A stretch of DNA of 64,000 nucleotides from an uncultured Candidatus Poseidoniales archaeon. Its GTDB lineage: Archaea; Thermoplasmatota; Poseidoniia; Poseidoniales; Thalassarchaeaceae. A program made the translations under genes and the position numbers. The stretch's first letter is position 1. Every line of letters begins with the position of its first letter. Shown in pieces: positions 15,592 through 64,000 of the stretch. The notes under the pieces were generated by a model. The model was not told the DNA's origin. It saw only the letters and a program-made list of their open reading frames with translations, and searched no databases. The DNA lies in the NCBI GenBank assembly GCA_964618995.1, contig CAZUBQ010000001.1, positions 83,632 to 147,631 on the forward strand. The letters are read 5' to 3'.

Positions 15592-15600
15592 ACTAACACC

Positions 15601-16044: not shown

Positions 16045-16078
16045 GTATCCACCTTGAGCAGCCCGCCGACCTGCCGCG

Positions 16079-16086
16079 CGTATATG
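16079..16086 (-). promoter_or_regulatory. Candidate TATA box for the S12-S7-EF2 operon
   Basis: A gtatatga element sits ~35-40 nt upstream of the S12 ATG in an otherwise GC-rich 113-nt divergent intergenic region. Confidence 0.25.
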
Positions 16087-16157
16087 AGGGTGATGGCTCG
16101 TAAATGATGGACACGGCGCCAGAATAGGCCCTCAATGTCATTGCACAGCCACCTCTG

Positions 16158-17501: not shown

Positions 17502-17562
17502 GCACACTCAACAGCGAAGGGGAGAAATGGCGGCACGTTACCAACCGCGATGAGGTGAGTGC

Positions 17563-37639: not shown

Positions 37640-37756
37640 GATACTTCTCGCCTTTGAATTCGGCGGACAGCGCACCGAGGCGATATATCAATCATTCCCT
37701 ATTCAAATGAAAATCGATTACCCTCCCATCGGTTCAGCGGATGAACAAGGTGGGTT

Positions 37757-46093: not shown

Positions 46094-46163
46094 CACTGAG
46101 ATACCCTCACCAGCGCCCCATAACGGTTCCCCAACGCGTATTCGTGAAACGATAGGCAGGGGG

Positions 46164-46985: not shown

Positions 46986-47076
46986 GTATACTTCCCAGTC
47001 CCTGAGAACGGAACACCGTGTCTGAAAGGCCGACGGGTTGAAGGCTGACCCTTGTCAGCGGCGGATGAGGATAGAG

Positions 47077-48429
47077 ATGGCACTCGATGGACTGCGCTCA
47101 GGCATCTTCGGCGCGTTGTCAGCACTGAAGGGTAAGCGTAAGCTCGACGAGGGTGAACTCTCTGACATGGTGCGCAGTATCAAGAAATCACTGCTCGAAG
47201 CCGATTTCAACGTCCGCCAGACGAAGGAGATCTCCGAGAGACTTGAGCAGCGAATGCGCGACGAGGAACCGCGGCCGGGCATCACACTGCAGACCCACGC
47301 GCTGAACATCCTCTACACTGAACTCGTGCGCATTCTCGGAAAACCAAGGGAGATTCATCCACACGGACAGACGATTCTGATGGTGGGACTCTATGGTCAA
47401 GGTAAGACGACCACCACCGCCAAACTCGCTGAGTGGTGGCGCAGACGACACGGCATGAAAGTCGCAGTCATTGAGGCCGATTCACACCGACCGGGCGCGT
47501 ATGCTCAACTACAGCAACTGCTAGCCGACACACCAACAACGGTGTACGGGGAGCCTGACGAGAAAGATGCGCTGACCATTGTACGCAACGGAATCGCTGC
47601 AGTAGGTGACGCGGATCTGGTCATCATCGACACCGCCGGCCGAGACCGGCTCGACGACGAGTTGCAGATTGAACTCGAGAACATCCACAAGGTGGCCAAC
47701 GCCACCGAGCGCTTCCTCGTCATCGACGCGCAGGTCGGTCAAGCTGCCGGACCAGTCGCCGCCAATTTCCACGACTTAGTGGACATCAGCGGTGTCATCG
47801 TAACCAAACTCGACGGCACGGCGCGTGGTGGTGGTGCGCTGTCGACAGTGGCGGCTACCGGCGCGCCGATCGTGTTCATTGGCGAAGGTGAGAAGGTCGG
47901 CGACCTGGAGTTGTTCGAATCGAACCGCTTCATATCACGGCTTCTCGGGATGGGCGACATTCAGGGACTGATTGACCTCGCTCCCGAAGATCTCGATGCT
48001 GAAGAGGCGCAACGCATCGCTGAGCGGCTGATGTCAGGCCGCTTCAGCCTACACGACATGGACCAGCAGATGGAGATGATGTCGCGAATCGGAACCGTCG
48101 ACCGCATTATGTCACACATGCCGGCGGGAATGTTCGGTCTTGGTGGAATGTCAACCAGGCAGAAGAAGGAGATGCAGACCAACCTCGATCGCTTTCGTAT
48201 CATCATGGACTCCATGACTGCCGACGAGAAGAACGAACCCACCCTGCTCAAACAGGAGCGCATCCGGAGGGTGGCGCGTGGCTCTGGTGCCACCGAGAAG
48301 GAAGTGCGCGCCCTACTGGCGCAGTGGAACAAGTCACGCAAGATGATGAAAGGAATGCGCGGTGACCGGCAGATGCGCAAGAAGATGAAGCAAATGATGG
48401 GTGACCTCGACGACTTCGACATCGCTTGA
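47077..48429 (+). CDS. ffh: Signal recognition particle protein SRP54
   Basis: [27 protein letters not shown]-domain with Met-rich C-terminus. Confidence 0.9.
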
Positions 48430-48481
48430 GTCATCATTTCTGAGTCGAGAGGTCTATTGCCAATTATCCTGAGCGAGGTGC

Positions 48482-49117
48482 ATGGGAGAGCGGCGCTTCG
48501 CCATCATCGGGCACCGAGCGCTGAATGACGGTAAGCTACCGCTGAATGACCTTGCTGGCGCGGGCGGCAGGATGGACGTGCTCGTGCGCGCGATTAACAC
48601 CGCACTCTTCCTATCTCATGGCATTCGAAATGATTCGCACATCACGCTGCACCTGATGGGTGGTCCGGGTCCTCCGCGCCGAATATGGTTCGATGGCAGT
48701 CGTCTCGAAGGTGTGCACGCCGATGAACGAGCAATCGCCGGCCAGGTCGCAAAGGTGCTGCGCGAGCCAACACCCCCCATAGGAAGATTGGATGAAATCT
48801 GGCCGGGCCTGTGGCACAGCGGAGGAGACATCTCGACCACAGTTGCAGAATGGCGGCGCGAAGAAGTATCCATGGTGAGGCTCGATGCCGATGCGCCGAT
48901 GCTGTGTGTGCCGGGTGGTGAACATTCAACCAACCATGGAGGCCATAAACTCGGGTTCTTCCTCTCAGATGACCTGCCTTTCACCGATACTGAACTTGAA
49001 CAAACCAGCTTGATTCCAGCACGTTCTCTCGGAGATCAGTGGATTCAAGGACACTCAGCGATTGCAGTAGTTCACCATCTTCTAGATACTGCAGTTGCAC
49101 TCGATCTTGGCGAATGA
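48482..49117 (+). CDS. trmY: tRNA (pseudouridine54-N1)-methyltransferase TrmY (SPOUT, MJ1640 family)
   Basis: DLAGAGGRMDVLVRAINTALFLSHGIRND matches the MJ1640 family ([29 protein letters not shown]). Confidence 0.7.
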   Translation: MGERRFAIIGHRALNDGKLPLNDLAGAGGRMDVLVRAINTALFLSHGIRNDSHITLHLMGGPGPPRRIWFDGSRLEGVHADERAIAGQVAKVLREPTPPIGRLDEIWPGLWHSGGDISTTVAEWRREEVSMVRLDADAPMLCVPGGEHSTNHGGHKLGFFLSDDLPFTDTELEQTSLIPARSLGDQWIQGHSAIAVVHHLLDTAVALDLGE

Positions 49118-49121
49118 GATT

Positions 49122-50069
49122 TCAAACATTCAACCAACGCGGTAGTCCGTGGATATCGGCTTCGAGTGCGGCTTCAAGGAGGGAATCTGGGATGGCCAAT
49201 GGATGAGTCTGGGGCCAAGTCGGCAGGGTCGTGATCGATGTGCTGCCCGCAGCGATGGCATCTGCGTCACCACCTTCTACCTCCTCCAACACAATCTCCT
49301 TCGCACCAATGCGGCAATTGTGCTCATCTAGTTCGACTGAACTCATGTCAATAGCCCCGCGATACCAGCGGGCACCTAGTCGAGTCGTCTGATATCCGCC
49401 ATCCCACTCACCAGCGCAGTTCAAGTTGAGCAGGACATCACCTCGTTGGAAAGCCATCCTGAGCGCACCCATGGATGAGCGCCCATCCCGCTGTTCCGGT
49501 CCACGGATTCCATGAGGGCGCAATCGGTTGACTGCGGTGCCCGGCAACAACTCAGCAGCGGCTTCCACAACCCTGAGCGTCGCTTCCACGGCATGAGTGT
49601 AGTCCTCGTGATCGAATGTACCGAGACTGGTTGAAATCGCCGGCATGCCGTATACCGCTGCTTGGCGCGCGGCGGCGACAGTCCCTGAGTGGAGTATGTC
49701 AATCGACACATTCGGACCGTGGTTGATGCCGCTGATGCAGAGAGAGGGCACCATGCCTTCTGGGAACAGTTGCTCACACTCCTCAAGTGCCAGTATTACT
49801 GAGTCGCAGGGAGAAGCATCCAGACTCACCATCTCCACTGGAGGACCGTTTGCTTCCAAATCCAGTATGTCACGCAAATCATCTCGGTTGGCGACCACCA
49901 AGTCCTGATGCAATGTCAGACGCATCCCAGATGCGCTCTGCTCCCGTGCTGGAGCGAGGACCAACAGTGGGAATCCTCGATTATGCAACGCGTGTATGAG
50001 CGCGTGCAGACCCGCCGCCTCTATGCCATCATCGTTGGTCAGCAGGATACAAGGGCGTGACACACTCAC
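49122..50069 (-). CDS. surE: 5'/3'-nucleotidase SurE
   Basis: ILLTNDDGI, SGINHGPN. GTG start. Confidence 0.85.
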   Translation of the reverse strand: MSVSRPCILLTNDDGIEAAGLHALIHALHNRGFPLLVLAPAREQSASGMRLTLHQDLVVANRDDLRDILDLEANGPPVEMVSLDASPCDSVILALEECEQLFPEGMVPSLCISGINHGPNVSIDILHSGTVAAARQAAVYGMPAISTSLGTFDHEDYTHAVEATLRVVEAAAELLPGTAVNRLRPHGIRGPEQRDGRSSMGALRMAFQRGDVLLNLNCAGEWDGGYQTTRLGARWYRGAIDMSSVELDEHNCRIGAKEIVLEEVEGGDADAIAAGSTSITTLPTWPQTHPLAIPDSLLEAALEADIHGLPRWLNV

Positions 50070-51031
50070 TCCTCGCCGCTGGCTGCCTGAGCATCGGTAT
50101 TCAAATCATCCAAACCCAAACTCACCAGTAGAACCCCGGCAATGAGCAGCGGCCCGCCGAGCCAGGTCCATATTCCCGGTACGCTGGTGGTCCCCAGTAT
50201 CCAGCCCAGTAACGAGCCGATGAGTGGCTCGAGTACGACCGCGATGGATATCACCAGCGGAGGAAACCAGCGCAGCACCGCGTTGATTCCTGTGTGGCCG
50301 ACCATCCCGGGACCCAGAGCGAGGTAAGCGATGTACGGCAGCCAGACAAGAGAACTCCATCCAAGCACTGCCGAAGCAGCTGGGATGGTCCCCCAGGCAG
50401 CCCCCTCAAGCCAAACGGCGGACAGTGCCAGCATGACGGCGGCGATGAGAGTGACCGGAAAGGCGTAGACGAACAGCGGCATCCATTCCCTCAGCACCCG
50501 CCCAGCGGCGAGGTATCCTACGATTGCGACCGCACCGAGGAAGGCGGCGGCATCACCGGCCAAGGTAACCTCACCCTCCGAACTGATGCCCATTAGAACC
50601 ACGGCAGCACCGAGGAACCCGAGCACTGCACCCAATGTCTGCTGCCGATTAGTGGGCCGTTTCAGCAACCATAAACCCACAACGATGACCAGCGGGTGAG
50701 ATGTGACGAACAGCAGGCTGTGTGTGAGCGAGGTGTGGTCAAGTGACCATACCCAACTTCCGAAGTGAATCCACAAGCAGAGCCCAGAGCCGACGATGAT
50801 CCCCCACACCTTCGAATCCTTCAGACGTCCTCTCGTCTCATCCGCCATTCCGCGGTACTGCCACATTGCCAGTGGTGCCAGTAGGGCTGCAGTCAACTGC
50901 AGACGCCACGATGCGCGCAGAAGCGGCTGCACCTCGTCAATCAGTTGGAACACAGGTCCTGCGCTCGATACGGCCAGCACGGCCGCGCCAAGCAGGACCC
51001 AAGCGTGCAGTGGTGGAGGCTCGCGCGCCAT
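50066..51031 (-). CDS. DMT-superfamily (EamA-like) permease
   Basis: 10 TM in two 5-TM repeats; EamA-like loop motifs. Confidence 0.6.
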   Translation of the reverse strand: MAREPPPLHAWVLLGAAVLAVSSAGPVFQLIDEVQPLLRASWRLQLTAALLAPLAMWQYRGMADETRGRLKDSKVWGIIVGSGLCLWIHFGSWVWSLDHTSLTHSLLFVTSHPLVIVVGLWLLKRPTNRQQTLGAVLGFLGAAVVLMGISSEGEVTLAGDAAAFLGAVAIVGYLAAGRVLREWMPLFVYAFPVTLIAAVMLALSAVWLEGAAWGTIPAASAVLGWSSLVWLPYIAYLALGPGMVGHTGINAVLRWFPPLVISIAVVLEPLIGSLLGWILGTTSVPGIWTWLGGPLLIAGVLLVSLGLDDLNTDAQAASGEE

Positions 51032-51043
51032 CGCGCAGCCCCC

Positions 51044-53491
51044 TCAATCCAACTCCGCTTCCATCAACTGGTCCTTCGGACCAATGATTCCCGCCTTGCG
51101 GAACAACATGTAAATCGCTCCTGCTAACAGCACGTTGATCACGATGAACGAGCCCATTCTCACCCATGGATACCAACCTAGATCCCCCATCACTTCATTT
51201 CGCATGACCGGGTCTCCGTTTTCATCCAGCAATGGCACTCCTCCTGTCATCTCAGGCACGTCCTCACCCCCACTGGGCAGTTCGTCTACAGCCGCCAACG
51301 CTGCTGATTCGACACCTAGGAACGCCTCACCGGTGAGCATGCCTGCAGCAATCATGAATGTAGCCAGCAGCAAGATGGCGCGCGTCCGCTCGGCTACCTT
51401 GTTGCCCTCTTTGGAACGAATCTTCTCCACCTTTGGCTTCAACTTGCGCTCCTCCCACCAGTCACGAGCTCCGCCGCCGATGAGCATCGGGAAGGTCATC
51501 AGCGTCGGGAGGTACATACCAAGACCGAACGACGTCCCCATCCCAGTAGCCCACTCAGCGAAGCAACCGAGCGCGAAACCTAGTGCCAAGGCCCTCAGGT
51601 CACCCTCCCCCTCTGCGAGCAGGATGGTGAAAGTGGCGAACGCGTTCGCTTGGGGGGCCACCAGATCTATGTCGCCATTGGCGAGCATGATTGAGAGGAA
51701 GATGGCGATTCCGGCACCTAGGATTGAGCCGGGCACTACCCCCATGATGTTGCCCTTCGATATGTGATATGGTCGATTACCGATGTACAGGCTGTTCTTG
51801 TAATCTGCAACCACAGTTCCGGACATCGAGATGGCCGAGCCGAACACCGTTGTGCCGACCAACCCCATCAGAATCGCTTCCTCTTTGGACAATCCCAGCG
51901 TTTCGCGGAAGTTCAGGAATAACGCGAGCAGCATTAGCAACACGATGAATGAGGTGCCCGAGACCGGCTCGATACCCGTCTCACCCATCACGCGAACGGC
52001 GATCGCCCCCAGCAGGAAGGTGGTTACTGCGACGACGATGGCGAAGATGATGCTCGGCAGCACTGGGAAGCCTCCAAGGGTGAAGATGACTATCATCGCG
52101 ATGAATGCGATTCCGAGGAATATCGGAATATGGTATAGCGGCCACTCATACCACCCCTTGCCTTCGATGTACTCCTCACCCTGCTCTCCCTGAAACGCTT
52201 TGGCGATGTCTCCGAAGATGTTCTTGAAGGTCGGGGCCATCTTGAACAGGCCTAGGAAACCCCCTCCGAGAATCGCTCCTATGGCAATCAGTCGAATCAG
52301 CGTGCTGTAGGCTACGATCTGAACCACCGGGCTGTATGGCTGAGTGTTGGGGTCTCCGACGTCGGATAGGAGGAAGTAATCCCCCAGACCCGCGATGTAC
52401 ACCGGCACGTCGAGAATGACTGCTAGGGGAACGAGGTAGAACCAAGCGACCAACGTCCCGAGATTAACGAGCACCGCAACGCGCGAGCGCATGAACCAGC
52501 CGATGGCGAACAGTGTAGGAGACATTTCGACACCCAGATAGGTGTATTGAAATGGATTCACACTACCCTCTTCGTAGTAGGTGACTCCGCGCGACACACC
52601 ATCCCATGTACCATGATTTCCATCGACTGTGTCCACTCCGGCAGGCTGGTGAATGGCTCGCTCGCTGAAGATGCTCGCAAGGCCCGTCCCGAGGAACGAT
52701 AACTTCTGTGTGACAACGTCTGCAATCGATGCGGGGACCCCATCGAGGTGGCGCTTCCAAGAAATGGGGTAGTCGATGACGAACATGAACGCCATCGTCA
52801 GCACTGTCCACAGACCAACCGTCTTGAGTGACTCCTTCGCCTGATCGGCAGCACCTACATTCACGTCGCAGGCGATGTCGAGCAGGACCAATGTGGCCTC
52901 GAACCCAGGCATCGGGAGCGGGTCCTCAATCAACCAAACCCTGCGGAAGATGATGAAATACATGATGCCTAGGAATCCGGCGAACATAGATGCAATGATG
53001 CCGATGAACGCCAACTGCATCGTGTCGATGTTCGTCAGCAATCGTCCACCTGAGACGATGTAGTTGTCACTGGAGGCGAGCAGGAAGATCGCAGGGAATG
53101 TGAAGATGAAACCTGTCGAGGCGTGAGTGGCGCCTGTGGTGGCCGAAGTGGCTATGTTGATCTCGGAAGGAGACCAACGCAGTGCCATGCCGAGCAGGTA
53201 GGCGACGTACCAAGCGGCTGATACTGCCAGCCCGATCTTCAGACCGATGTAGGCGGTCACCCCTGCGAACACCGCTCCGATAGCGATGCCTACTAGTACC
53301 TTCCAGAGCGACCAGTGAGATACCTCGAACGCCTCTGCGAGGTTCTTCTCCTCGAGGTATTGCTCCAGCAGTCCGGTGTTCAGGTTCTTGTACATCTCTT
53401 GGTCGAGCCAGGTCAGTTCTCCGGACTCAATCGCCTTGAGACCCTCAGCCGTGACTGGGCGGCGATATGTCGAACGCTTCACCCCACTCAC
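51044..53491 (-). CDS. OPT-family oligopeptide transporter-like membrane protein
   Basis: ~16 TM, 815 aa; pattern and size resemble OPT-family archaeal proteins. The GTG at 53491 is uncertain; an internal ATG at 53395 is an alternative start. Confidence 0.5.
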   Translation of the reverse strand: MSGVKRSTYRRPVTAEGLKAIESGELTWLDQEMYKNLNTGLLEQYLEEKNLAEAFEVSHWSLWKVLVGIAIGAVFAGVTAYIGLKIGLAVSAAWYVAYLLGMALRWSPSEINIATSATTGATHASTGFIFTFPAIFLLASSDNYIVSGGRLLTNIDTMQLAFIGIIASMFAGFLGIMYFIIFRRVWLIEDPLPMPGFEATLVLLDIACDVNVGAADQAKESLKTVGLWTVLTMAFMFVIDYPISWKRHLDGVPASIADVVTQKLSFLGTGLASIFSERAIHQPAGVDTVDGNHGTWDGVSRGVTYYEEGSVNPFQYTYLGVEMSPTLFAIGWFMRSRVAVLVNLGTLVAWFYLVPLAVILDVPVYIAGLGDYFLLSDVGDPNTQPYSPVVQIVAYSTLIRLIAIGAILGGGFLGLFKMAPTFKNIFGDIAKAFQGEQGEEYIEGKGWYEWPLYHIPIFLGIAFIAMIVIFTLGGFPVLPSIIFAIVVAVTTFLLGAIAVRVMGETGIEPVSGTSFIVLLMLLALFLNFRETLGLSKEEAILMGLVGTTVFGSAISMSGTVVADYKNSLYIGNRPYHISKGNIMGVVPGSILGAGIAIFLSIMLANGDIDLVAPQANAFATFTILLAEGEGDLRALALGFALGCFAEWATGMGTSFGLGMYLPTLMTFPMLIGGGARDWWEERKLKPKVEKIRSKEGNKVAERTRAILLLATFMIAAGMLTGEAFLGVESAALAAVDELPSGGEDVPEMTGGVPLLDENGDPVMRNEVMGDLGWYPWVRMGSFIVINVLLAGAIYMLFRKAGIIGPKDQLMEAELD

Positions 53492-53496
53492 TGACT

Positions 53497-53515
53497 CACC
53501 TGCCTAAGGCAGGTG
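53497..53515. promoter_or_regulatory. Perfect palindrome cacctgcc-taa-ggcaggtg (8-bp arms)
   Basis: It sits 6 nt upstream of the OPT GTG and ~90 nt downstream of the aIF5A stop. It could be an operator site or an RNA hairpin. Confidence 0.3.
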
Positions 53516-53604
53516 CAACACATGACAGCCGATTCAATACGGTTGCCCTTGATGAAGGTCAGAGGATACCACTTGAACGGAGAGTTCGTGGAGCGACAGG
53601 ACCT

Positions 53605-53991
53605 TCAATGATCGCGGATGATTTTGAAGCGGCCCATCGCTTCCATCCACATGATCTCGCCACCAGCCTCGACATTCAGACTCGCATCGGCTGGGAGAAC
53701 CATCATCTCGAATGTCTTCGCATCCATGGCGTGCACCTCCTCACCTTGGAGATGGGTGACCGTGGCGGTACCCTTCTCTATCAGAGGCACATGGACGGAG
53801 TCTGACACGCTGCCGACATGGCTGCGCTTCTGGCCGGTGAACAGGTCCTCGAGCTCGATGCGCGCCTTGGCGCTGCCGTGCTTGCCCGGCTTGGACTTCG
53901 AGATGCTCAATATGCGGTAGGCGTCATCATCGATGGCCAGGTAGCGTCCGACCTTCAAAGTGCGAATCTCGACGCGTGACGTGCCTGGCAT
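53605..53991 (-). CDS. eif5a: Translation initiation factor 5A (aIF-5A)
   Basis: Hypusine loop SKPGKHGSAK. ATG at 53991. Confidence 0.85.
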   Translation of the reverse strand: MPGTSRVEIRTLKVGRYLAIDDDAYRILSISKSKPGKHGSAKARIELEDLFTGQKRSHVGSVSDSVHVPLIEKGTATVTHLQGEEVHAMDAKTFEMMVLPADASLNVEAGGEIMWMEAMGRFKIIRDH

Positions 53992-54049
53992 CCTAATCCC
54001 TTCCCTGACCCACTTCCTCGGTCTTATCAGCATTGCCTAGCCTGAGGGC

Positions 54050-54901
54050 TCAGGCGTAGTCATAGAAACCCTGGCCGCTCTTGCGCCCCAACTTACCCTC
54101 GGCAACCATCTTCTCAAGGAGCGGGGCGGGGCGGTACTTGTCATCCTTGAAGCCTTCGTGCAGGACGTTCATGATGTGCAGGACAGTATCGAGACCGACC
54201 AGATCCGCAAGAGCCAGTGGGCCGATGGGATGATTCATTCCGAGTACCATGATGCCGTCGATGGCGTGTGCATCGGCGATTCCCTCCTCGTATGTCAACA
54301 CCGCTTCGTTGAGCATCGGGCAGAGCAACCGATTGGAAATGAATCCCGGCGAATCGTTGCAACACAACGCCGTCTTGCCCATTCGCTCTGCAACCAGCAT
54401 CACCGCTTGTGTCACCTCCTCATCAGTCTCCTTGCCGAGGACTATCTCGACCAGACGCATTATCGGAACCGGATTCATGAAATGCATCCCTATGACGTTG
54501 TTCGGACGCCCAGTACTACCAGCGATGTCATTGATTGAGATGCTGCTTGTGTTGCTGGCGAGAATTGCTTCGGGATTGCACAACTCATCCAGTTCGGTGA
54601 ACAGAGAGAATTTCAAGTCTGGAATCTCAGGAACTGCTTCGATGACGAGATCAGCCTCTTGCGCCGCAGAATTCTCAGTAGAGGTAGTGATGCGCTGGCG
54701 CGAGGCATCTGCATCCTCCTGGGTCATGCGCCCCTTCTCGACCAGCTTCCCCAGCGAGAACTCGATGGTGCCGATACCGCGCTCGACGAACTCATCGGAG
54801 ATGTCGATCATCGTGACCTGATAGCCAGCACAGGCAGCCACCTGCGCGATGCCATTTCCCATCTGTCCCGCGCCGATTACCGCGATGCATTCGATGTCCA
54901 T
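54050..54901 (-). CDS. hbd: 3-hydroxyacyl-CoA (3-hydroxybutyryl-CoA) dehydrogenase
   Basis: IAVIGAGQMGNGIAQV Rossmann, HFMNP, C-terminal dimerisation domain. Confidence 0.8.
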   Translation of the reverse strand: MDIECIAVIGAGQMGNGIAQVAACAGYQVTMIDISDEFVERGIGTIEFSLGKLVEKGRMTQEDADASRQRITTSTENSAAQEADLVIEAVPEIPDLKFSLFTELDELCNPEAILASNTSSISINDIAGSTGRPNNVIGMHFMNPVPIMRLVEIVLGKETDEEVTQAVMLVAERMGKTALCCNDSPGFISNRLLCPMLNEAVLTYEEGIADAHAIDGIMVLGMNHPIGPLALADLVGLDTVLHIMNVLHEGFKDDKYRPAPLLEKMVAEGKLGRKSGQGFYDYA

Positions 54902-54957
54902 CGTGCTCTCGACCCCAGTCGCCCAAATAGCGGTTATGCCACACCTGACTGCCGCGC

Positions 54958-57900
54958 TCACTTGTGATGCGCCCAGTATCCTGATTCGTCGCGGAACCAC
55001 CATACGTCGCTGTTCTCGGGCCATTCGAGCCACTCGACGCCATCGTCAGCAACCTCGCCCTGAGTCTCCTCGTGAGGTGCTTCATAATCCTCTGTCACCA
55101 CTCCTTCCGAGGCCTCCTCAGCCCAACTCCCAGCAGCGTCATCCACCACCTGCAGCGCTTGGTCCAACTTTCCACCGCCCGCTCGCTTGCGCTTCGGTTT
55201 GCGCGTGTTGACAGTGACTGCAACGACCAAACCGACAATCACCAGGATTGCCAGTGCGATCGCCACCCACAGGAATGTAGGCAACCCGGAGCCGGATTTG
55301 CCACCGTCGGTTACGGGTCCGGTCCAGATTTCCGCAGGGCAGCCATTCGCTAGTGAGGAGGAGTCGTCGGGGCACTTGTCGGGCGCGGTGGCTCCGGGAA
55401 TGAATTCCCCTGGCCAGCCATACTGCCGGCTTGAGTTCCATTCAGGGTCGTCCCAGTTGTCATAGAATCCATCACCATCGCTGTCAAACCATTGTGTTGA
55501 ATCATAGATCAACGCATCGGCACCATCACTCAGTCTCCAGAGGCTGTCAGGGTCACTGTACCCGTCGCCGTCGCTGTCCGGGCATCCTCGCCGATCGCCG
55601 GTCGAATTACCAACTCTGTTCCTGCAGTCGTCACCGTTCGTGCCAGACGAATTATCCCCCATGCCGTCGCCATCGGTGTCTCTTGTCTGGGTAGGGTCGT
55701 GGGGGAAAGCGTCGTTCGGATTGTTGACTCCATCGCCATCGTCATCACGCTGACTGTCGGAGCACCCGTACCAGTCGGCCATCGCTACCTCGGAAGTGGG
55801 TGTGTCCGGGCAGTCGTCATAGGCGTCGTTGATACCGTCGAAATCGCTATCCCGTTCGGATGGTCCGCATCCGTCTTCGTTCACATCGTCAATCTCATGA
55901 GGAGGTGTTTCGAGGCAGTCATCAGGGTTGTTCCCTTCCCATCGATCTCCGTAGCCGTCGCCATCGTCGTCCTCCCATTGGGTCGATTCATCGGGGAAGT
56001 CGTCATCGATGTCCGCATAACCATCACCATCGGAATCAGGGCAGCCAAAGCGCCCTAGTTCAGTGGATGTACCGGCTTGAAGTGGACATGAGTCGGGCTG
56101 AGTACCCATCTGCTGGTCCGCGAAGCCATCCCCGTCCGTGTCCGACCACTTGAACGGATCATTTGGCCAAGCGTCACCCTGCTCATTGACTCTTAGCAGG
56201 CCATCTTGGTCGAGGAAGTAACTGTGGTTGTCGCCGTATCCGTCTCCATCGGTGTCGACCCATTGGTGGTGGTCGAGAGGAAAGGCATCAGCCCCATCGT
56301 CGGTCAGCCAGTCGCCATCCTCGTCGGACCACCCATCACCATCGGTGTCCGGGCATCCGAAGCGGTCGTAGTGGGATGTCCCGGCGATGTCTGGGCAGGC
56401 GTCGGGCTCCCACGCGCCAATGGTCTGGTTGTTACCGTATCCGTCCTCATCACTATCGAGCCACTGGGTCGGTTCATCTGGGAAATCGTCATCGATGTCC
56501 GCGACCCCATCACCATCCGCGTCCGGACAGCCAATCGTGGGCACTGTACTGTTGCCCCACTGTGTGATGCAATCGTCATCTGAGTTTGCATAGCCGTCAC
56601 CATCGTCGTCTAGTTGGTACTGAGCACAGCCCCGTTCGTCAGCCACCCAACCCTCGAGTGTGTCGGCACAGTCGTCCTCACCGTTCCATACACCGTCATT
56701 GTCGTCGTCGGGGAGCAGGTATCTGGCATCGAACCCGATACGAGCCCATGCGAAAACTCGTGCATACAGGCTGAGTCGGACGAACCCCATCTCGTCCCAC
56801 TCCGCCTGCGCCGTGTCGTTGAGCATCCACTCCAACAGTTGGAGGCGTTCCTGAAGTTCCGCGGAATCGATGATGAGGTAGTGATCATCTTGTACCGGCC
56901 ACGTACCGTTCTCGCTGGCCGAAACGGACGGTTGGATTGCTTGACCGCCACCGTAGAGCGCGTCCTGCACGCCATGCGTCCAATTGTCGACGATAGGTAC
57001 GTGGTAAAGGTCGGGGGAGTCGAGCGCCACGCGCATCTCAGTGAACCCGAGCAGGTCATCCTGCTGGCTGACGAAGTAGACTAGTGAACTGCGCAACTCC
57101 TCCTCGAACCTGTAGCGAGCAGTGGAACCGACGAAGAAGCCATCTGGGAACTGACAGTCACTGCAGGTGAACAGACGCTCCATCATCATCGGCACGGAGC
57201 GATTGTCCCAACGTCCTGCAACGTGAAACGGCTCCTGGTTGCATGAGGAATGGAGATCCCCCCACTCCTTGATTCCGTCATTGTCAAGATTGGGGACCAC
57301 CGACATCAGCTCAATCCCCGGCATGTCCCCAGACTGCACCATTGTCGAGACTGAGGCTCCGGAGAGGAACCATCTCAGTTGCGCCATCGACAGTCCTCCA
57401 ATGGTGCTCAGACAGGATTCGGCGGCTCCGCCTGACTTGACAAACAGGGAGGCGGGCATACGACCGATGGGCACCTCAAGGAGTTGCGAAGGGGTCTGAG
57501 TGCAGTTCAAGAGTCCATTTGTTGACCAGTTGGCTGTAGGGGAGGCTATGTGGTGAGGGACTCCATGAGTGATGGATCCGATGATGCCGCCATCGTCGCA
57601 GAGGGTGTTCGACATCAACGTGGTGGTCATGTTTTTGTGCGACACGGGGCGGCCGTCGGTGCTCGGCCAGTTCTCTTGCCAACTGTCGATCATAATTTCG
57701 CCCGTGATGTCTCCTTTCAACTGATGGAATGTCTCTGGCGACATGTACACCGTGGTGCGGCCACGTACCTGGGCGAACGCCATTTTGTTTCCATCGGGAG
57801 ACCACGCGACAGCCCTGACTCCGCGACTGCTACCGCCACCACCACCGCTGAACGATCCGAATTCTGCTATTTCGTCTGAATAGTTACTGATGTTAGCAAC

Positions 57901-58977
57901 GTTATCGGGACTGTCGTAGACGCGCACTTCGTTATCACCGCCAGCGACAACGAAGTACGCACCTGTAGGGTCGAATGATATCGAATAGACGTCGCGAGAA
58001 CTGTCAGTGAATCCGCCGACATGCGATGCGTTGCTGACGTTGTAGATGTTGACGCGATTGTCAAACGCCCCTGTTAGCAACCACCGACCGTCTGGGCTGA
58101 ATGTGACCCCGAGAGCATAATTGGTCGTATGGTTGTTGAAATACATGTGTTCAGTTCCATTGTTGGTCCAGAACGTCTTCAGCTCCCCTCCTGCAGCCAA
58201 TCCAGCGACCAGTCGGTCATCTGGACTGACATCGACACTCCAAACCGTTTGACCGGGATCGAATGAATAATTCCTCACCATGCTCCAGTTATCATTCGCC
58301 GAGAATTGTCGCAATTCTCCCTCGCCACCACCGGTGTACAGGTAGGTGCCGTTGGATGACCATGCCACACTGGGCACATCGTCGGTATGCGCGTTACTCA
58401 GGTTCTTCATAAGAGTGGCAGTATTGGTTGTCCAGTCCATCTCCAAGATAACTATCTGAGAATGGTTGTCGCCACCGTTGAAGTACGCGCCAGCAGCAAG
58501 ATAGGAGCCGTTTGGCGAGAACGCCAACCCCCTGACGTATTCATCAGAGAAGGTGTACAGAGTTGCAATAGTTGCCCCGCCTGCTGTGTAGAGCATGACA
58601 TCACTCCCACCACCTCCAGCCACGTGAACCGAGTCAGGAGCCCACGAGATGGCGCGGGAACTGCCGTCGCTAACATACAGGGCCCTCGCCGAATCTTCCC
58701 AGTCTGTGATCGCCGCCCCGGAGAAATTCGGGTTACCATCACCATCTGAATCCGGGCATCCAGCATAGCCGATGGTGCTGTTCCCCCATGCGAACGGGCA
58801 GTCATCCACTGCATCGTCGATTCCATCATTGTCACCATCGACTGCGGAGGCGGTGAGGGCGAACATCGCGCTCGAGCACATGAGCATCAGCACGAGCATT
58901 ACGGGCATGACTTGTGGACGCGTACGCACCAGCATTGAACTGCCAAGGAGTATGTTCCACCTTTGGCTCTGTCGCAT
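54958..58977 (-). CDS. Giant surface protein: signal peptide, WD40-like beta-propeller, array of thrombospondin type-3-like Ca-binding repeats, C-terminal TM helix and acidic cytoplasmic tail
   Basis: N-terminal hydrophobic signal. Repeated SPDG/WSPDG blades. More than 12 DxDGDGxxDxxD/GCPDxDGDG units. Dense NxS/T sequons. C-terminal LPTFLWVAIALAILVIVGLVVAV + KPKRKR + ~100-aa D/E-rich tail. Confidence 0.7.
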   Translation of the reverse strand: MRQSQRWNILLGSSMLVRTRPQVMPVMLVLMLMCSSAMFALTASAVDGDNDGIDDAVDDCPFAWGNSTIGYAGCPDSDGDGNPNFSGAAITDWEDSARALYVSDGSSRAISWAPDSVHVAGGGGSDVMLYTAGGATIATLYTFSDEYVRGLAFSPNGSYLAAGAYFNGGDNHSQIVILEMDWTTNTATLMKNLSNAHTDDVPSVAWSSNGTYLYTGGGEGELRQFSANDNWSMVRNYSFDPGQTVWSVDVSPDDRLVAGLAAGGELKTFWTNNGTEHMYFNNHTTNYALGVTFSPDGRWLLTGAFDNRVNIYNVSNASHVGGFTDSSRDVYSISFDPTGAYFVVAGGDNEVRVYDSPDNVANISNYSDEIAEFGSFSGGGGGSSRGVRAVAWSPDGNKMAFAQVRGRTTVYMSPETFHQLKGDITGEIMIDSWQENWPSTDGRPVSHKNMTTTLMSNTLCDDGGIIGSITHGVPHHIASPTANWSTNGLLNCTQTPSQLLEVPIGRMPASLFVKSGGAAESCLSTIGGLSMAQLRWFLSGASVSTMVQSGDMPGIELMSVVPNLDNDGIKEWGDLHSSCNQEPFHVAGRWDNRSVPMMMERLFTCSDCQFPDGFFVGSTARYRFEEELRSSLVYFVSQQDDLLGFTEMRVALDSPDLYHVPIVDNWTHGVQDALYGGGQAIQPSVSASENGTWPVQDDHYLIIDSAELQERLQLLEWMLNDTAQAEWDEMGFVRLSLYARVFAWARIGFDARYLLPDDDNDGVWNGEDDCADTLEGWVADERGCAQYQLDDDGDGYANSDDDCITQWGNSTVPTIGCPDADGDGVADIDDDFPDEPTQWLDSDEDGYGNNQTIGAWEPDACPDIAGTSHYDRFGCPDTDGDGWSDEDGDWLTDDGADAFPLDHHQWVDTDGDGYGDNHSYFLDQDGLLRVNEQGDAWPNDPFKWSDTDGDGFADQQMGTQPDSCPLQAGTSTELGRFGCPDSDGDGYADIDDDFPDESTQWEDDDGDGYGDRWEGNNPDDCLETPPHEIDDVNEDGCGPSERDSDFDGINDAYDDCPDTPTSEVAMADWYGCSDSQRDDDGDGVNNPNDAFPHDPTQTRDTDGDGMGDNSSGTNGDDCRNRVGNSTGDRRGCPDSDGDGYSDPDSLWRLSDGADALIYDSTQWFDSDGDGFYDNWDDPEWNSSRQYGWPGEFIPGATAPDKCPDDSSSLANGCPAEIWTGPVTDGGKSGSGLPTFLWVAIALAILVIVGLVVAVTVNTRKPKRKRAGGGKLDQALQVVDDAAGSWAEEASEGVVTEDYEAPHEETQGEVADDGVEWLEWPENSDVWWFRDESGYWAHHK
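55437..56697 (-). repeat. Degenerate tandem coding repeats (TSP3-like Asp-rich units) inside the giant surface protein gene
   Basis: Reiterated gatggcgacgg/gacagcgatgg-type codon blocks encoding DxDGDG. Confidence 0.5.
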
Positions 58978-58988
58978 CTCTGACTACG

Positions 58989-61900
58989 TCAGTTATTCGT
59001 GTCTGACTCGGGTGGGTGTAGTTCATCATCCTCATCAACCGCAGAATCCTCTGGCACTTCATCATCCAACTCACCGATGACACCGGACACATCGACCTCG
59101 TCGAGCAGGTCGAAATCGGCCTCGTCGGTTGGCGGGGGGCCAATCGGTCCGATGCTAGAAGTCATCTTCATCGCCTCGATGTCATCCAATCCCTCGTAGT
59201 CTAGTTTCTCGTAGTCGTCGAGGAACAACTCCGGGTCAAGTGGTGTTCCTATAGGGTGGGTATCGGGCCCGCTACGTTGTCTGCGCTGCCAGAAGACGAG
59301 CAGTAGCAGCAGACCAGCTATGCTCGCCATGTTTGCCAGCGATCCGGGTTCGCTCACCTTCGCTGTCATTGTGTTCTCAGGGGCGATGGCGACAGCCTCA
59401 AGTTCGATTATCTGGTTGTTACCCGCCAAATCCGAAACCCGCAGGGATGCATCCCAGTGACCAGGCCTGGCGATTTCCGAAATATCGAACCAAAGAGTCT
59501 GCTCCCCCGGAGACCCTCCGGTCATGCTATGCTCTATCTCCCGCTCTCGCTCGATCAACAGCGACCAATCAACTATGTCGTCGTCGAGGAAGTCCACCCT
59601 GAGAATCAACTCGCAGTCGGCCATCGGCTCAGGCCGGAACACCGAGGGCACAGGCTCGGGATCACATCGATTGAGGTCCCACTCCAAGCGCGCCTGAGGC
59701 GCTCGGCGGTCAATCGTCAGATTTTGAGCCCGCCACCCGAGGTTACCGGCGATGTCGGTGCTGCTGACATTGAGCAGCCACAGACCATCCACCCCTGGTA
59801 GGTCGATGCGAACCGTGTAGGTTCCCACGTCTGTACAGGAAGCAGAAGCGGACTCGTCGGCTATGCGCACGTCGACCTCAAGCCCGGGTTGACACCCCCC
59901 GGTGACCTCCATGGACCAATTCGACGTATGCAACCCGCGCGGGGGTGAGTCAATCGTCAGTTGAGGTGGTTGGGTATCCAGATGGACCTCTAGCAGGAAC
60001 ACGAACATATGTTCGAGCGCCGACATGTCGAAGCGGATGTGGTTTTCACCCTCCAACAACTGCACAGGGACTGATATGTCACCAGCGTCAGTACTGCCAC
60101 TCGACATAGGAATCCAGGTCGAGTTGACCAAACGGCTCCAGGACCAGGACTGGTCCGGACCGAGGTACAGGTCGGCGTGCAACGTTGGTGTATTTACAAC
60201 GCTGCCATTCCATTCGGCCGTCAGAGTGGGGAAGTAGATCTCTGGAGGTAGTAAGACGGTGATGCACTCGAGCACAGTGTTCGGGTCGGGGCCAAAGGAC
60301 AGGTCGACAGCGTAGATGCATATCTCGTGTTCGCCTACGCTCTCAAGCGCCAATGAGGTGGAGGAAGTGATCGTGTGCTGCGAGGTGACAGTGGTCGCAG
60401 CCAGACCGTCGATGAGCACCTGCACTCGTGCCGGCTCGGAGATGTTCCACTCGACGACGAACTCATGATGCAGCAGGGTGACGTTGTTCGCTGGTGTTAT
60501 CCAGCCCACCTCGGGCGAGGTACGATCTAGTTCCAAGGTGAAGTTCTCATGACCCCAGTTCTCGGCGAAGTCGAGCAACTCGACCTCCACCTGATACTCT
60601 CCATCGAGGAGTTGTGACTGGTTCACCTCGAATTCGAAGGTGACGTGTGCCCACGGGTCTTGTTCTCTCGCAGATGTTGTTTCGCCACCGCGCAGATGGG
60701 CGCCGTTGTCATCACCCCATGGAGGTGTCTGCTGGTGCTCACAATCCCGGTAGTAAGAGAATCCTGACTCATCTAGCAGACGAATGCACATCCTTCTCGT
60801 GTCGAATATCGATTCCAGATGCAGCAGCATCGGCCCTGTCCTTGCGTTGAGGGCTCCGTTGAAGTCGCTGTCAATGCCATCGAACGGTGGCCATGCCCAA
60901 CTTCCGTTCGGTGAATCACCGGTCGTCTGCACGAACTTGACCTGCTTGTCAACCTGAGGCGGCAGATCATTGGTGGGTCCTATCTCGTCATAGACGATGT
61001 CGAACTCTAGTTGGTTCCAGTTACCGGCCAGATCCAGAGCATCGACCCTGAAGGTGTTCAAGCCAACCCACTCCCAAGTGGTAACGTCGGCAGAATCACC
61101 TGCGACATTCGACCATTCGCTCGGATTCAACGACAGCGACAGATTAGCCCTGCCGCTAGAGTCGACGAGATGCTCGATTCCATCGACCCATATGCGTGAG
61201 CCCACATCGGACTGCACCCAGAGCCAGTCTGGGTTGGAGACATTCGTCAGCAGAGTCCAACCATACAGGATGATCGGGGGGGCGACGGTGTCATACTCCA
61301 CCATCAGGATGGTCTGGTTCAGTTTGCCGAAGTTGTCCGAGACATTTGCCCAGAATGTGCGCCACCCTTCGTCTGTAGGGAGGGTCAAGTTGACCCACGC
61401 GGCGCGCATCAGTGCCTCCTCGTAGAGGGTTGAGGTCGTCTCGTTCTTCCCTAATGGGGTGTAGAGCCAGTCGTCGATGATGATAATCCGGTCGACGCTG
61501 AGGCCATCCTCAAGCATCCACAGGCTGAACACATGCCTTCCAGCAGCCTGCACCATGAAGGTCGCCACCTGGCTCTGGTTGTTCGCCCACCCGCTCGCTG
61601 CCCAGTCCCACTGGCCATCCACACTGGTAGCCTCGACCAATCCGAGCTGCTGGCCGTCGATTCCGTAACGGATAGAGTCACCATTCGCATCTGGCGCGCT
61701 CAAGCGTAGCCAAACGTAGTACTGACCGGGGCTGTTGAAATCTATAGAATAGTCCAAGCGTGAGCCGATATTGATGTTCGCACCATCATCGGGCGTTGCG
61801 TTCAAATGGCCTGTACCCGAATATCCGGGGACGGAGGAGTTGACTTCCCAGGTGTGGTTCGAGGGGTCCCCGAGTGCAGAATCCGTATAGGACTCCGCTT

Positions 61901-64000
61901 CGATCACCAACTTACCTGATGTCTCGGAGTAATGTGTGCCATTGGCCAGGCTCGCGCCGCTGTTCCAGTGCTTCCATGAAGCGGTGAAGTCCCGGCTGTC
62001 GCTGGTGTACGACTCGATTCCCTCCACCGAAATCGTCAGGTTGTCCCAGAGCATCGAAGGGTCACCCTCCAAACTCAATGAGGACAGGTTGAACCCGTCG
62101 CCGATATCGCTGGTGGCGAGGTTGACCGGCAGTGTCGCATTGGTGCGCGTGCCATTGAGGGGGGTCGAGAAGACCAGTTCAGGCGGATAGTCGAGCAGTT
62201 GGTAGTCGTATTCGAGCCTGACCTTGCCTCCAGATGCGAGTTCGAGGACAATCCAACCGCGCCAGTCGCCCGGTTCAGCGGGCATGCCATAGTCGACGAC
62301 AACGTCGAATGCTGTGACCGGCATCCTCCCTGCTAGCACGCTGCTGCCGTTGGGGAATCGGCTCTGGATGGTCGTGCTGTTCAACTCGGTGAGATTGGTC
62401 ACAGTGAGCAGGTCACCGGAGACGATGGTGCGCTTGAGCATGAAGTTGGCTGAACCATTGGGAACATCGAACCCATTGACCACCGCCCACCATGTCCCGT
62501 CATCAGGGTTCTCGATTGTGATCTCCTCGTCTGAATTCCAATTGCCTGAGACATCTATCTGCTCGCCACCCCAGTTGATGTTGCCATCGCCGTTCTTGTC
62601 GTGGTAGAGCGCCAGATCCAAATCGGTGCGCGGCGCGCTAGAATCGATCTCGATGCGCAGCATCACCGCATCGTCGACCGTGAATTGGTGGCGATATGAC
62701 GAGCTCGACCATCCACCTGGGGTGTCCTGCAGCGCGGTTTCGGTGGGCAGCAAGGTAGGCTGCGTCCACCCGTATCCGGTCACTGAGGCAATGTCCAACC
62801 CCATGGTTGAACCGAAGGTCACCACTTCCTGACCTGTGGCGTCGTTCCAGTCACGTACGACACGAGACAGCGTCCCGTCGATTGACGCCACATAGCCGAC
62901 CGATATGTTCAGCGGGTTGTCGTTGGTGTTCACTCCGTGCATCGCCGAATGCAGCATCATCTGCTTCAGCCCGGGTGTCGCTTCGGCCACCAGCACCTCG
63001 TGGCTGCTTCCTGTCGAGGTCTCCCAATCGTAGATACCGCTGCCGACGTCCATGTTGCGCGACGACACCTCGGGCTCGAGGTTCACCGGCCCATACGCTG
63101 CTGGATCATCGAGTTGGAACGGATGGCCACGCTCTGACATCCAATGCACGTCGACGTCGGTGTAGCTGTTGTTTGGCCAGTCGACATCGATGACAATCGC
63201 CCCATCACCTGACATGTTCTGCGGCCAATCGAACGAGAGGAACTTCCAGTCTCCCGATTCAGAGCGCCATCCCCAGCGCTGCGCCCCCTGCAACCAAGTC
63301 TCAGTGTAGAGCGTCTGGTTGCTGACGTTGCCGTCGATTGGCTTCGGGCGCAGGTCTAGCGGCCCGGGAGATGCGACGTTGACGACCACCGGTAGGGGCC
63401 AGTCCCTTAGGTGGGTGCCATTAGCGGTGTATGTGGAGATGCGGATCTGCTCCTGATGAATCCCGGGCAGTGCATCGGCGGGCACGTTGACGCTGCAGTT
63501 GAACCACCCGCTGCCATTCGGAGACAGCTGAACCGAATTCGAGCACGGGCTCAGCCAGGTGTTATTGACATCGGGTCCGAACGCCGTCCAATCGACATCT
63601 ATCGGCAATGGTTCCTTGGTACCGACCTGTGCTTCGTGTCTGTAGACCCCTAGTATGATTCCATCCCCGCCCCGTTCCAGCGGCCAGCCCGCGCGGGTCT
63701 CTGATTGCCCCGTCTGATACGTGTGCGCCGACAGGGTGGAGTACTCATTGCCGCCCTCCATCTCATCGCCATCGACGTATCCGTCACCGTCGGTGTCGTT
63801 CCACCAGATACCATCTCCGTCGACATCGTGCCAACTGAACAGCTCCACATAGACCCGATTCTCAGACTGCCTGTTCTGATCGTTGTCGAATCCCTCGCCG
63901 TTCATCGCAGCCCGCGCCCTGATGAGTGAGGTTCCGTTGGGAATCGACAGGTTGGCATCGCCTTCGATATGGATAGGGATGAAGATGTCCGGCCTACCTC
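58989..64000 (-). CDS. Second giant surface protein (5' end beyond window): multi-domain, sequon-rich, PPC- and lectin/CBM-like modules, C-terminal TM and acidic cytoplasmic tail
   Basis: The reading frame is open to the window edge upstream of the annotated Met. A PPC-like segment (DLDLALYHDKNGDGN...GTWWAVVNGF) and a CBM6/35-like segment (EAESYTDS...GYSGTGHL...GQYYVWLRLSA) are present. C-terminal IAGLLLLLVFW + RRQR + ~110-aa acidic tail. Confidence 0.65.
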   Translation of the reverse strand, partial: GRPDIFIPIHIEGDANLSIPNGTSLIRARAAMNGEGFDNDQNRQSENRVYVELFSWHDVDGDGIWWNDTDGDGYVDGDEMEGGNEYSTLSAHTYQTGQSETRAGWPLERGGDGIILGVYRHEAQVGTKEPLPIDVDWTAFGPDVNNTWLSPCSNSVQLSPNGSGWFNCSVNVPADALPGIHQEQIRISTYTANGTHLRDWPLPVVVNVASPGPLDLRPKPIDGNVSNQTLYTETWLQGAQRWGWRSESGDWKFLSFDWPQNMSGDGAIVIDVDWPNNSYTDVDVHWMSERGHPFQLDDPAAYGPVNLEPEVSSRNMDVGSGIYDWETSTGSSHEVLVAEATPGLKQMMLHSAMHGVNTNDNPLNISVGYVASIDGTLSRVVRDWNDATGQEVVTFGSTMGLDIASVTGYGWTQPTLLPTETALQDTPGGWSSSSYRHQFTVDDAVMLRIEIDSSAPRTDLDLALYHDKNGDGNINWGGEQIDVSGNWNSDEEITIENPDDGTWWAVVNGFDVPNGSANFMLKRTIVSGDLLTVTNLTELNSTTIQSRFPNGSSVLAGRMPVTAFDVVVDYGMPAEPGDWRGWIVLELASGGKVRLEYDYQLLDYPPELVFSTPLNGTRTNATLPVNLATSDIGDGFNLSSLSLEGDPSMLWDNLTISVEGIESYTSDSRDFTASWKHWNSGASLANGTHYSETSGKLVIEAESYTDSALGDPSNHTWEVNSSVPGYSGTGHLNATPDDGANINIGSRLDYSIDFNSPGQYYVWLRLSAPDANGDSIRYGIDGQQLGLVEATSVDGQWDWAASGWANNQSQVATFMVQAAGRHVFSLWMLEDGLSVDRIIIIDDWLYTPLGKNETTSTLYEEALMRAAWVNLTLPTDEGWRTFWANVSDNFGKLNQTILMVEYDTVAPPIILYGWTLLTNVSNPDWLWVQSDVGSRIWVDGIEHLVDSSGRANLSLSLNPSEWSNVAGDSADVTTWEWVGLNTFRVDALDLAGNWNQLEFDIVYDEIGPTNDLPPQVDKQVKFVQTTGDSPNGSWAWPPFDGIDSDFNGALNARTGPMLLHLESIFDTRRMCIRLLDESGFSYYRDCEHQQTPPWGDDNGAHLRGGETTSAREQDPWAHVTFEFEVNQSQLLDGEYQVEVELLDFAENWGHENFTLELDRTSPEVGWITPANNVTLLHHEFVVEWNISEPARVQVLIDGLAATTVTSQHTITSSTSLALESVGEHEICIYAVDLSFGPDPNTVLECITVLLPPEIYFPTLTAEWNGSVVNTPTLHADLYLGPDQSWSWSRLVNSTWIPMSSGSTDAGDISVPVQLLEGENHIRFDMSALEHMFVFLLEVHLDTQPPQLTIDSPPRGLHTSNWSMEVTGGCQPGLEVDVRIADESASASCTDVGTYTVRIDLPGVDGLWLLNVSSTDIAGNLGWRAQNLTIDRRAPQARLEWDLNRCDPEPVPSVFRPEPMADCELILRVDFLDDDIVDWSLLIEREREIEHSMTGGSPGEQTLWFDISEIARPGHWDASLRVSDLAGNNQIIELEAVAIAPENTMTAKVSEPGSLANMASIAGLLLLLVFWQRRQRSGPDTHPIGTPLDPELFLDDYEKLDYEGLDDIEAMKMTSSIGPIGPPPTDEADFDLLDEVDVSGVIGELDDEVPEDSAVDEDDELHPPESDTNN

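Follow-up and report, generated by a model that had tools for sequence, protein, structure and literature searches.

A conserved Poseidoniales gene pair for a membrane-anchored S8 protease and a propeller-bearing glycoprotein with a widely shared tryptophan-rich tail module

What do two giant genes at the end of a 64-kb window of archaeal DNA encode, and what are the long acidic tails of their products for? The window, that is, the whole stretch of 64,000 nucleotides that was analyzed, stems from a Poseidoniales archaeon. It ends in two adjacent open reading frames (ORFs), which a preliminary description had read as tandem giant cell-surface proteins encoded on the minus strand. Both ORFs were confirmed:

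54958..58977, minus strand: ORF1, the partner glycoprotein gene, 1339 amino acids (aa), or 1325 aa if Met15 is the start
58989..64000, minus strand: ORF2, the S8/subtilisin-family protease gene, 3′ two-thirds (aa ~819-2487), with the frame open to the window edge and at least 1669 aa

The gene content of the window is archaeal (aIF5A, EF-2, exosome subunits, SRP54), and the best named matches of both ORFs were titled 'uncultured marine group II/III euryarchaeote', Poseidoniales or Thalassarchaeaceae. About 30 full-length orthologues of ORF1 were found, which are titled marine group II/III euryarchaeote. Marine group II (MGII) archaea rank among the most abundant surface-ocean heterotrophs, and their capture and digestion of organic matter that is high in molecular weight has been inferred from gene lists only. 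To our knowledge, none of them has been cultured.

The results make it probable that the two genes form a conserved Poseidoniales pair, composed of a tethered S8 protease and a glycoprotein with a WD40 propeller, a PstS-like domain and a calcium-binding stalk. The pair would serve surface capture and proteolysis, with peptide uptake by a transporter of the oligopeptide transporter (OPT) family and a docking module that is shared with other proteins. We regard the domain identities, the type-I anchoring, the pairing of the genes, the conservation of the tails and the lineage-wide sharing of the module as shown or strongly supported.

The window edge truncates ORF2: start codon, signal peptide and catalytic domain are all encoded beyond position 64000. 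The upstream continuation, to which the preliminary description had pointed, was looked for and found in contig L001. This contig matches positions 45001-64000 of the window at 99.97% and extends 4.3 kb further, holding the missing 5′ part with the S8 catalytic domain. The encoded protein (P0121, 2487 aa) is 100% identical to ORF2 across all 1669 residues within the window. Peptidase_S8 (PF00082) matched aa 265-724 of P0121 with 115.3 bits, compared with a gathering cut-off of 21.8, and the catalytic triad is present in subtilisin order (D274/H483/S673). The characteristic motifs are VAIVDSGID (aa 270), HGTLCAS (aa 483), NGGHG with the oxyanion asparagine (aa 587) and GTSLATP (aa 671). Judged by its sequence, ORF2 is the non-catalytic two-thirds of a pyrolysin-like, membrane-anchored subtilase of about 2400-2487 aa and more than a lectin- or adhesin-like protein. 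In L001 (region 1840-2143), the S8 gene, if its called start is taken, shares 61 nt with the HD-domain gene that precedes it. The true start is likely a GTG at position 2083 or a TTG at position 2053, 72-82 codons downstream of the called start; these starts would give an orthologue-like signal peptide and a protein of about 2406-2416 aa. Every MGII metagenome-assembled genome (MAG) encodes 1-4 extracellular S8 subtilisins (PMC6864105).

Within the window, the following features of the protease were located:

62478..62687, minus strand: weak PPC-like module, PF04151 at 18.9 bits, below the cut-off of 25.9
61479..61931, minus strand: GH115_C-like beta-sandwich (CBM-like) module, PF17829 with E 5.2e-13 and 49.6 bits, cut-off 24.1
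59709..59966, minus strand: immunoglobulin-like (Ig-like) module (Big_13/Glucodextran_B), PF19077 at 29.6 bits (cut-off 27) and PF09136 at 24.8 bits
59289..59345, minus strand: transmembrane (TM) helix, a hydropathy peak preceded by a (T/E)PGSxxN motif
58992..59288, minus strand: cytoplasmic tail of 99 aa with QRRQR, TPLDPELF and S(S)xGPIGPPP, 31% Asp plus Glu (D+E)

PPC-like and CBM/lectin-like modules had been assigned to ORF2 before. The CBM-like part of this assignment stood, in the form of the GH115_C-like module, whereas the PPC match remained weak and below threshold. Precomputed PF04151 matches are present on several S8 orthologues. The scores of Big_13 and Glucodextran_B on ORF2 were at or slightly under the cut-offs.

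The partner glycoprotein has a different architecture, for which these features were found:

58843..58977, minus strand: signal peptide, aa 1-45, with an h-region at aa 21-47 and predicted cleavage near the ASA/VDG junction
57718..58680, minus strand: WD40 beta-propeller, aa ~100-420, PF00400, with dense N-glycosylation sequons
56683..57750, minus strand: PstS-like periplasmic-binding-protein domain, aa 410-765, from AlphaFold2 (AF2) and Foldseek
55453..56709, minus strand: calcium-loop stalk resembling thrombospondin (TSP) type-3 repeats, aa 757-1175, with 14 DxDxDG loops and paired cysteines
55210..55275, minus strand: TM helix, aa 1235-1256, Kyte-Doolittle peak 3.18, preceded by G(L/I)P
55081..55209, minus strand: basic cluster NTRKPKRKR, conserved motif KLxQALxVVDxAAxxW and acidic linker
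54961..55080, minus strand: C-terminal tryptophan-rich (Trp-rich) beta module, the last 40 aa (...DDGVEWLEWPENSDVWWFRDESGYWAHHK), from all orthologues, AF2 and profile searches

The WD40-like propeller that had been proposed for ORF1 was borne out by PF00400 (E 9e-27, 92.8 bits, cut-off 27), and many other propeller models matched over aa ~100-415. Between the propeller and the stalk, the model of aa 410-765 predicts a two-lobed periplasmic-binding-protein fold that resembles phosphate-binding proteins. AF2, run with 17 orthologues, folded this segment with a predicted local distance difference test score (pLDDT) of 90.2 and a predicted template modelling score (pTM) of 0.86. In the Foldseek search of the Protein Data Bank (PDB) the top 47 matches were all PstS or other phosphate-binding proteins, with 4jwo as the best (E 2.4e-14). 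The sequence-profile search of the same segment against the PDB retrieved phosphate-binding proteins at E 0.2-0.6 only, a marginal result; the PstS-like identity was decided by the fold search. PBP_like_2 did not match ORF1 itself; the orthologue P0009 scored 27.3 bits, with a cut-off of 27.

For the region that follows, at least 12 calcium-binding repeats of the TSP type-3 kind had been claimed. The motif part of this claim is correct: 16 DxDxDGxx[DN] loops were found in ORF1, of which 14 are located within aa 757-1173, compared with 0.74 +/- 0.84 in shuffles, and cysteine pairs with a spacing of 13-16 aa flank the loops. Dx[DN]xDG is a calcium-binding motif (PMC3123361), and thrombospondin-type genes are widespread in Poseidoniales (PMC6461757). 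The formal family membership did not hold, as Pfam TSP_3 (PF02412) matched neither ORF1 nor, even at E ≤ 10, its segment aa 760-1226. With a cut-off of 25, the orthologue P0009 reached 19.5 bits and P0334, another carrier of the Trp-rich module, 23 bits. Because the loops far exceed the shuffles and are paired with cysteines, 'TSP3-like calcium-binding stalk' is nevertheless a fair name.

A paralogous family of WD40/calcium-loop proteins of about 1150 aa (P0031-P0048) carries another conserved tail, EEERRxxWIxHYVxxGxxxxAxxLGW...PxWKQ..., which has no Pfam match. It thus seems that related ectodomains exchange their cytoplasmic tails as modules.

Are the two proteins really anchored with their tails inside the cell? 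Hydropathy revealed one C-terminal hydrophobic helix in each ORF, a strong one in ORF1. N-terminal signal peptides are present in all orthologues of both families, including 30 of 30 for ORF1, and the signal peptide that had been described for ORF1 itself was recovered as well. Both proteins had been called saturated with N-x-S/T sequons, and the numbers agree, at about three times the shuffle expectation: 27 were counted in ORF1 (9.2 +/- 2.8 in shuffles) and 41 in the window part of ORF2 (14.0 +/- 3.4), and every one of them precedes the TM helix. In the two families, sequons per 100 aa were 2.0 in the ectodomain and about 0.35 in the tail for ORF1 (n=30), and 2.4 and about 0.5, respectively, for S8 (n=48). 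The number of Lys plus Arg residues (K+R) in the 15 aa flanking the TM helix was 0.23 before and 6.77 after the helix in the ORF1 family, and 0.83 and 3.19, respectively, in the S8 family. Because of this bias of K+R to the tail side and the scarcity of sequons in the tails, a type-I topology with a cytoplasmic tail is predicted. It is strongly supported by these sequence features that both proteins are exported, N-glycosylated and held by a single C-terminal TM helix.

The endings of the two proteins follow the layout that had been noted, namely a proline-containing motif, one TM helix, a K/R cluster and an acidic tail. In ORF1 the order is GLPTF, the helix (aa 1235-1256), NTRKPKRKR and a tail of 83 aa with 24% D+E; in ORF2 it is EPGS, the helix, QRRQR and the 99-aa tail. 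The acidity of the tails was thus confirmed, with a D+E background of 15% in the other ORFs of the window and 15-18% in the two ectodomains, whereas for ORF1 the length that had been given (about 100-110 aa) was too high. For the ORF1 family the median tail length is 86 aa, for the S8 family 52 aa. When both tails were scanned with NCBIfam at E ≤ 1, neither matched PGF-CTERM, PEF-CTERM or similar sorting models, so that together with the K+R bias of the orthologues the earlier reading of a type-I ending unlike PGF-CTERM was upheld.

It had been considered that the tails might be absent in orthologues. The opposite was found, as they are kept and contain conserved elements. Every ORF1 orthologue has the same tail layout, consisting of a basic cluster, the motif (K/R)LxQALxVVDxAAxxW, a variable acidic linker and a Trp-rich C-terminus of about 40 aa. 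The helix-like motif stands directly after the basic cluster in many ORF1 orthologues (window 55150-55200, ORF1 aa ~1260-1276), and it was also seen in some unrelated short matches (P0241, P0244). In the S8 tails, DPEL and GPxGxPP are invariant in 12 orthologues of 47-82% identity, and ADAxxLQ is present in many; a more distant S8 clade has a shorter tail that ends in ...MFEDDVVVSxEExTPSNTE. A profile of the S8 tail (A5) recovered S8-tail fragments only and no other family. By its sequence, the S8 tail is a family-specific acidic segment that looks disordered and contains short conserved motifs. The two tails are therefore different in kind, a folded and widely shared module in ORF1 versus family-specific short motifs in the protease. 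The search for homologous tails gave a split result, with the ORF1 module on other proteins and the S8 tail only within the S8 family.

Just outside the TM helix of the protease, (T/E)PGSxxN(I/L) (window 59340-59365) is kept throughout the S8 orthologues P0121-P0164, even at 37% identity, and it is conserved above its surroundings; it might serve for processing or recognition. A pairing of the GPxGPPP of the protease tail with the Trp-rich module of the partner, in the manner of a proline ligand and a WW-like domain, was also considered. No co-variation was found, and the pairing was rejected because the partners in the loci L003 and L004 keep the module, while the tails of their proteases differ and lack the motif.

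The Trp-rich module is kept in about 30 ORF1 orthologues down to 37% identity, including those of L003 and L004. The consensus is approximately GxxGDDGxEWLEWPxxSDxWWxRDxSGYWxxW in near relatives and DEHGTEWWxxxDGxWWYRxxxxxDW in distant ones. AF2 predicted, with a pLDDT of 94.1, a small antiparallel beta sheet with strands at 16-19, 27-30 and 36-39. Pfam and NCBIfam were run on the tails as well as on canonical versions of the module and on the paralogues' alternative tail; only noise driven by the TM helix resulted. The hallmarks of a WW domain (PF00397 or a significant structural match, and a terminal W-x-x-P) were also sought in the module and were not found.

When the module profile was searched against 1.84 billion representative proteins, 123 were retrieved at E ≤ 1e-3. 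The module almost always forms the very end of the protein, where it is preceded by a TM helix, a basic cluster and a poly-acidic linker. Its carriers include FG-GAP (integrin-alpha-type) proteins of about 1440-1530 aa, a CBM96 protein of 3048 aa, a TSP_3 protein (these three kinds span 1170-3048 aa) and others without a known domain, and furthermore multi-pass membrane proteins and one probably soluble acidic protein. In P0309 (337 aa) the N-terminus bears the module, and KDKIK, a TM helix and a C-terminal ectodomain come after it, which is the type-II mirror image of the usual order. The module is thus found on the positive-inside side at either end of a protein, which argues against a C-terminal sorting signal. 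Its presence on unrelated ectodomains fits generic anchoring or docking better than ligand-specific signalling.

A genome scan with the profile alignment A4, covering one genome per GTDB species, confirmed 386 module loci. Nearly all of them come from records titled Poseidoniales, and the MG-II chromosome CM001443.1 is among them. The neighbourhoods of the best 80 of these 386 loci (L006-L085, with the module at ~6001-6120) were surveyed. In 79 of the 80, the carrier belongs to one orthologous family of about 1430-1480 aa with the canonical module; for this family, FG-GAP was tested on the similar-sized representative P0350 (1446 aa). In 76 of the surveyed loci a gene of about 256 aa on the same strand directly follows the module gene; by eye, its product looks like a candidate for a PAC2/proteasome-assembly-chaperone-like protein. 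L026 (NZEQ01000040.1) is titled 'Verrucomicrobiales bacterium' and contains the same 1443-aa Poseidoniales family with a module match of 100% identity; it is probably a mis-binned archaeal contig.

Are the two genes of the window a unit? The order HD - S8 - WD40 protein - 3HCDH - aIF5A - (GNAT) - OPT was found in four loci (L001-L004), of which L001 represents a near-identical strain and L002-L004 represent relatives with proteins that are 37-50% identical to those of the window. ORF1 starts 11-53 nt downstream of the ORF2 stop codon, and in L002 the stop of the protease and the start of the partner overlap by 4 nt. The kept adjacency, the overlap and the short gap therefore support co-expression of protease and partner. 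The transporter gene is also present in the window:

51044..53491, minus strand: OPT-family oligopeptide transporter, as context, with PF03169 on the identical gene in L001

The relative position of OPT is unchanged in L002-L005. In the more distant L005 the protease and OPT are present and the WD40 gene is absent. The conserved neighbours are HD, 3HCDH, aIF5A, GNAT, OPT, EamA and SurE, and no conserved regulator was found in the neighbourhood of the pair in L001-L005. Given this synteny, a functional link of the pair to peptide uptake by OPT is plausible. L005 also has an ORF of 1030 aa on the opposite strand between 3HCDH and aIF5A (15373-18465, minus strand), with an N-terminal TM helix and without a Pfam match. 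Elsewhere in the window, there are an ORF of 1781 aa (32330-37675, minus strand) and one of 522 aa (44528-46096, minus strand), the latter with a zinc-ribbon-like CxxC...CxxC at its start.

The following scheme would bring the two proteins together. While tethered to the cell surface, the pair would capture and cleave high-molecular-weight protein. Next to the protease, a calcium-stiffened stalk would hold up the propeller and the binding-protein domain of the partner, and the resulting peptides might enter the cell through the neighbouring OPT transporter. At the end of its flexible acidic linker, the Trp-rich module could tether or cluster the ectoproteins, either via a shared cytoplasmic partner or by self-association. 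A more specific version, in which the module is a Poseidoniales-specific cytoplasmic docking domain that ties many giant surface proteins (ORF1, FG-GAP and CBM96 proteins, and others) to one cortical partner or into blade-like clusters, is offered as a tentative and rather doubtful possibility. Several observations weigh against the scheme. The length of the S8 tail ranges from 17 to 115 aa. The synteny of the pair with OPT also includes aIF5A and 3HCDH and may merely reflect conserved gene order. A conserved partner gene was sought around the 80 module loci, and only housekeeping synteny was found (the ~256-aa gene, TRM1-like, PurM, MCM). In the two instances where one MAG seemed to have more than one carrier (L009/L010 and L015/L018), these were duplicate strain copies.

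Other explanations of the endings were weighed against this scheme. The preliminary description had favoured outside-in coupling, i.e., type-I receptors in which an outside ligand, bound for example by the PstS-like or the propeller domain, would send a signal through the tail to a cytoplasmic effector. The Venus-flytrap-type PstS-like domain in the ectodomain of ORF1 would suit such a role, as would the conservation of the cytoplasmic module and of the short tail motifs. Nevertheless, Pfam and NCBIfam revealed no kinase, HAMP, cyclase, DNA-binding or other signalling domain and no enzymatic domain in either tail, a regulator is missing from the conserved neighbours, and the module is found on unrelated ectodomains and even on a probably soluble acidic protein. 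In addition, a single TM helix with a long disordered acidic linker would be a poor conduit for a conformational signal. These results gave no support to outside-in coupling, and we regard it as unlikely.

Cleavage of the endings as sorting signals by an archaeosortase, a rhomboid or another protease would leave the mature proteins released or lipid-anchored and the tails discarded. This would be in line with the tripartite layout, with (T/E)PGSxxN in the S8 family (kept to 37% identity) and with G(L/I)P in close ORF1 orthologues. It is quite unlikely in view of the absent CTERM matches and of tails of 50-130 aa, compared with a few residues in known sorting signals. Furthermore, the tail of ORF1 ends in a confidently predicted, strongly conserved fold, and the same module is N-terminal in the type-II protein and occurs on multi-pass proteins. 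It could also be argued that the tails are functionless, acidic spacers of low complexity that reflect an acidic proteome and keep the stop-transfer helix in place, as the S8 tails differ widely in length and sequence among clades and the ectodomains are themselves acidic. However, the tails contain about two times as much D+E as the window background, DPEL and GPxGxPP do not vary over the 12 S8 orthologues, and the best-conserved portion of the ORF1 tail is the very module that is predicted to fold, which makes a mere spacer highly unlikely. The conserved pair of a tethered protease and its binding partner with a shared docking module remains the probable explanation.

For MGII, giant S8 proteases and thrombospondin-type genes have been outlined before (PMC6864105, PMC6461757). 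Judged by Pfam, NCBIfam and the literature searched, the operon of protease and partner, the PstS-like domain in the partner and the shared Trp-rich module appear to be undescribed. The locus gives a concrete picture of a tethered giant protease and a partner with propeller, binding protein and calcium stalk, syntenic with a peptide transporter. The profile of the Trp-rich module provides a simple marker with which the membrane-anchored surface proteome could be catalogued throughout the order, and the module points to a cytoplasmic partner or a clustering mechanism. If this is true, the docking module would be an archaeal counterpart of integrin and TRAP tails that organizes the surface of the most abundant planktonic archaea.

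How do the proteins compare with known systems? The protease can be compared with pyrolysin-type and cell-envelope S8 subtilases such as Pyrococcus pyrolysin and lactococcal PrtP. It shares with them an S8 domain with long insertions and an intact triad, a long C-terminal extension of beta-sandwiches, the association with the envelope and presumably the feeding on extracellular protein. It differs in its size of about 2.4 kaa, the GH115_C-like module, the single TM helix, the acidic tail of 50-115 aa with conserved short motifs and the operon-like pairing with a WD40/PstS/TSP3-like protein. ORF1 resembles TSP type-3 proteins (thrombospondin/COMP, bacterial OmpA-TSP3) in its repeated DxDxDGxxDxxD loops, the flanking cysteine pairs and a stalk that is probably stiffened by calcium. 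Unlike them, it stays below the threshold of Pfam TSP_3 and adds a WD40 propeller, a PstS-like domain, a TM helix and a cytoplasmic domain. In archaeal surface glycoproteins, PGF-CTERM/archaeosortase A signals likewise place a small conserved motif, a TM helix and a basic cluster close to the C-terminus, but ORF1 and ORF2 continue for 83-99 aa beyond the helix, match no CTERM hidden Markov model (HMM), and in the case of ORF1 carry a module that is N-terminal elsewhere.

For the Trp-rich module, small beta domains such as WW, SH3 and Tudor and a single beta-propeller blade are the comparators. Its closest functional analogies may be the tails of apicomplexan TRAP/MIC2-family adhesins and of integrin alpha subunits, which are type-I proteins with an adhesive or TSP-type ectodomain, one TM helix and a short acidic tail. 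In TRAP, it is through a conserved tryptophan at the C-terminus that the adhesin is coupled to a cytoplasmic partner. The tryptophans of ORF1 differ in that they are part of a folded beta module of about 40 aa and not of a linear motif, so that the likeness, to which the FG-GAP (integrin-alpha-type) propeller proteins among the module carriers contribute, is one of functional analogy and not of shown homology.

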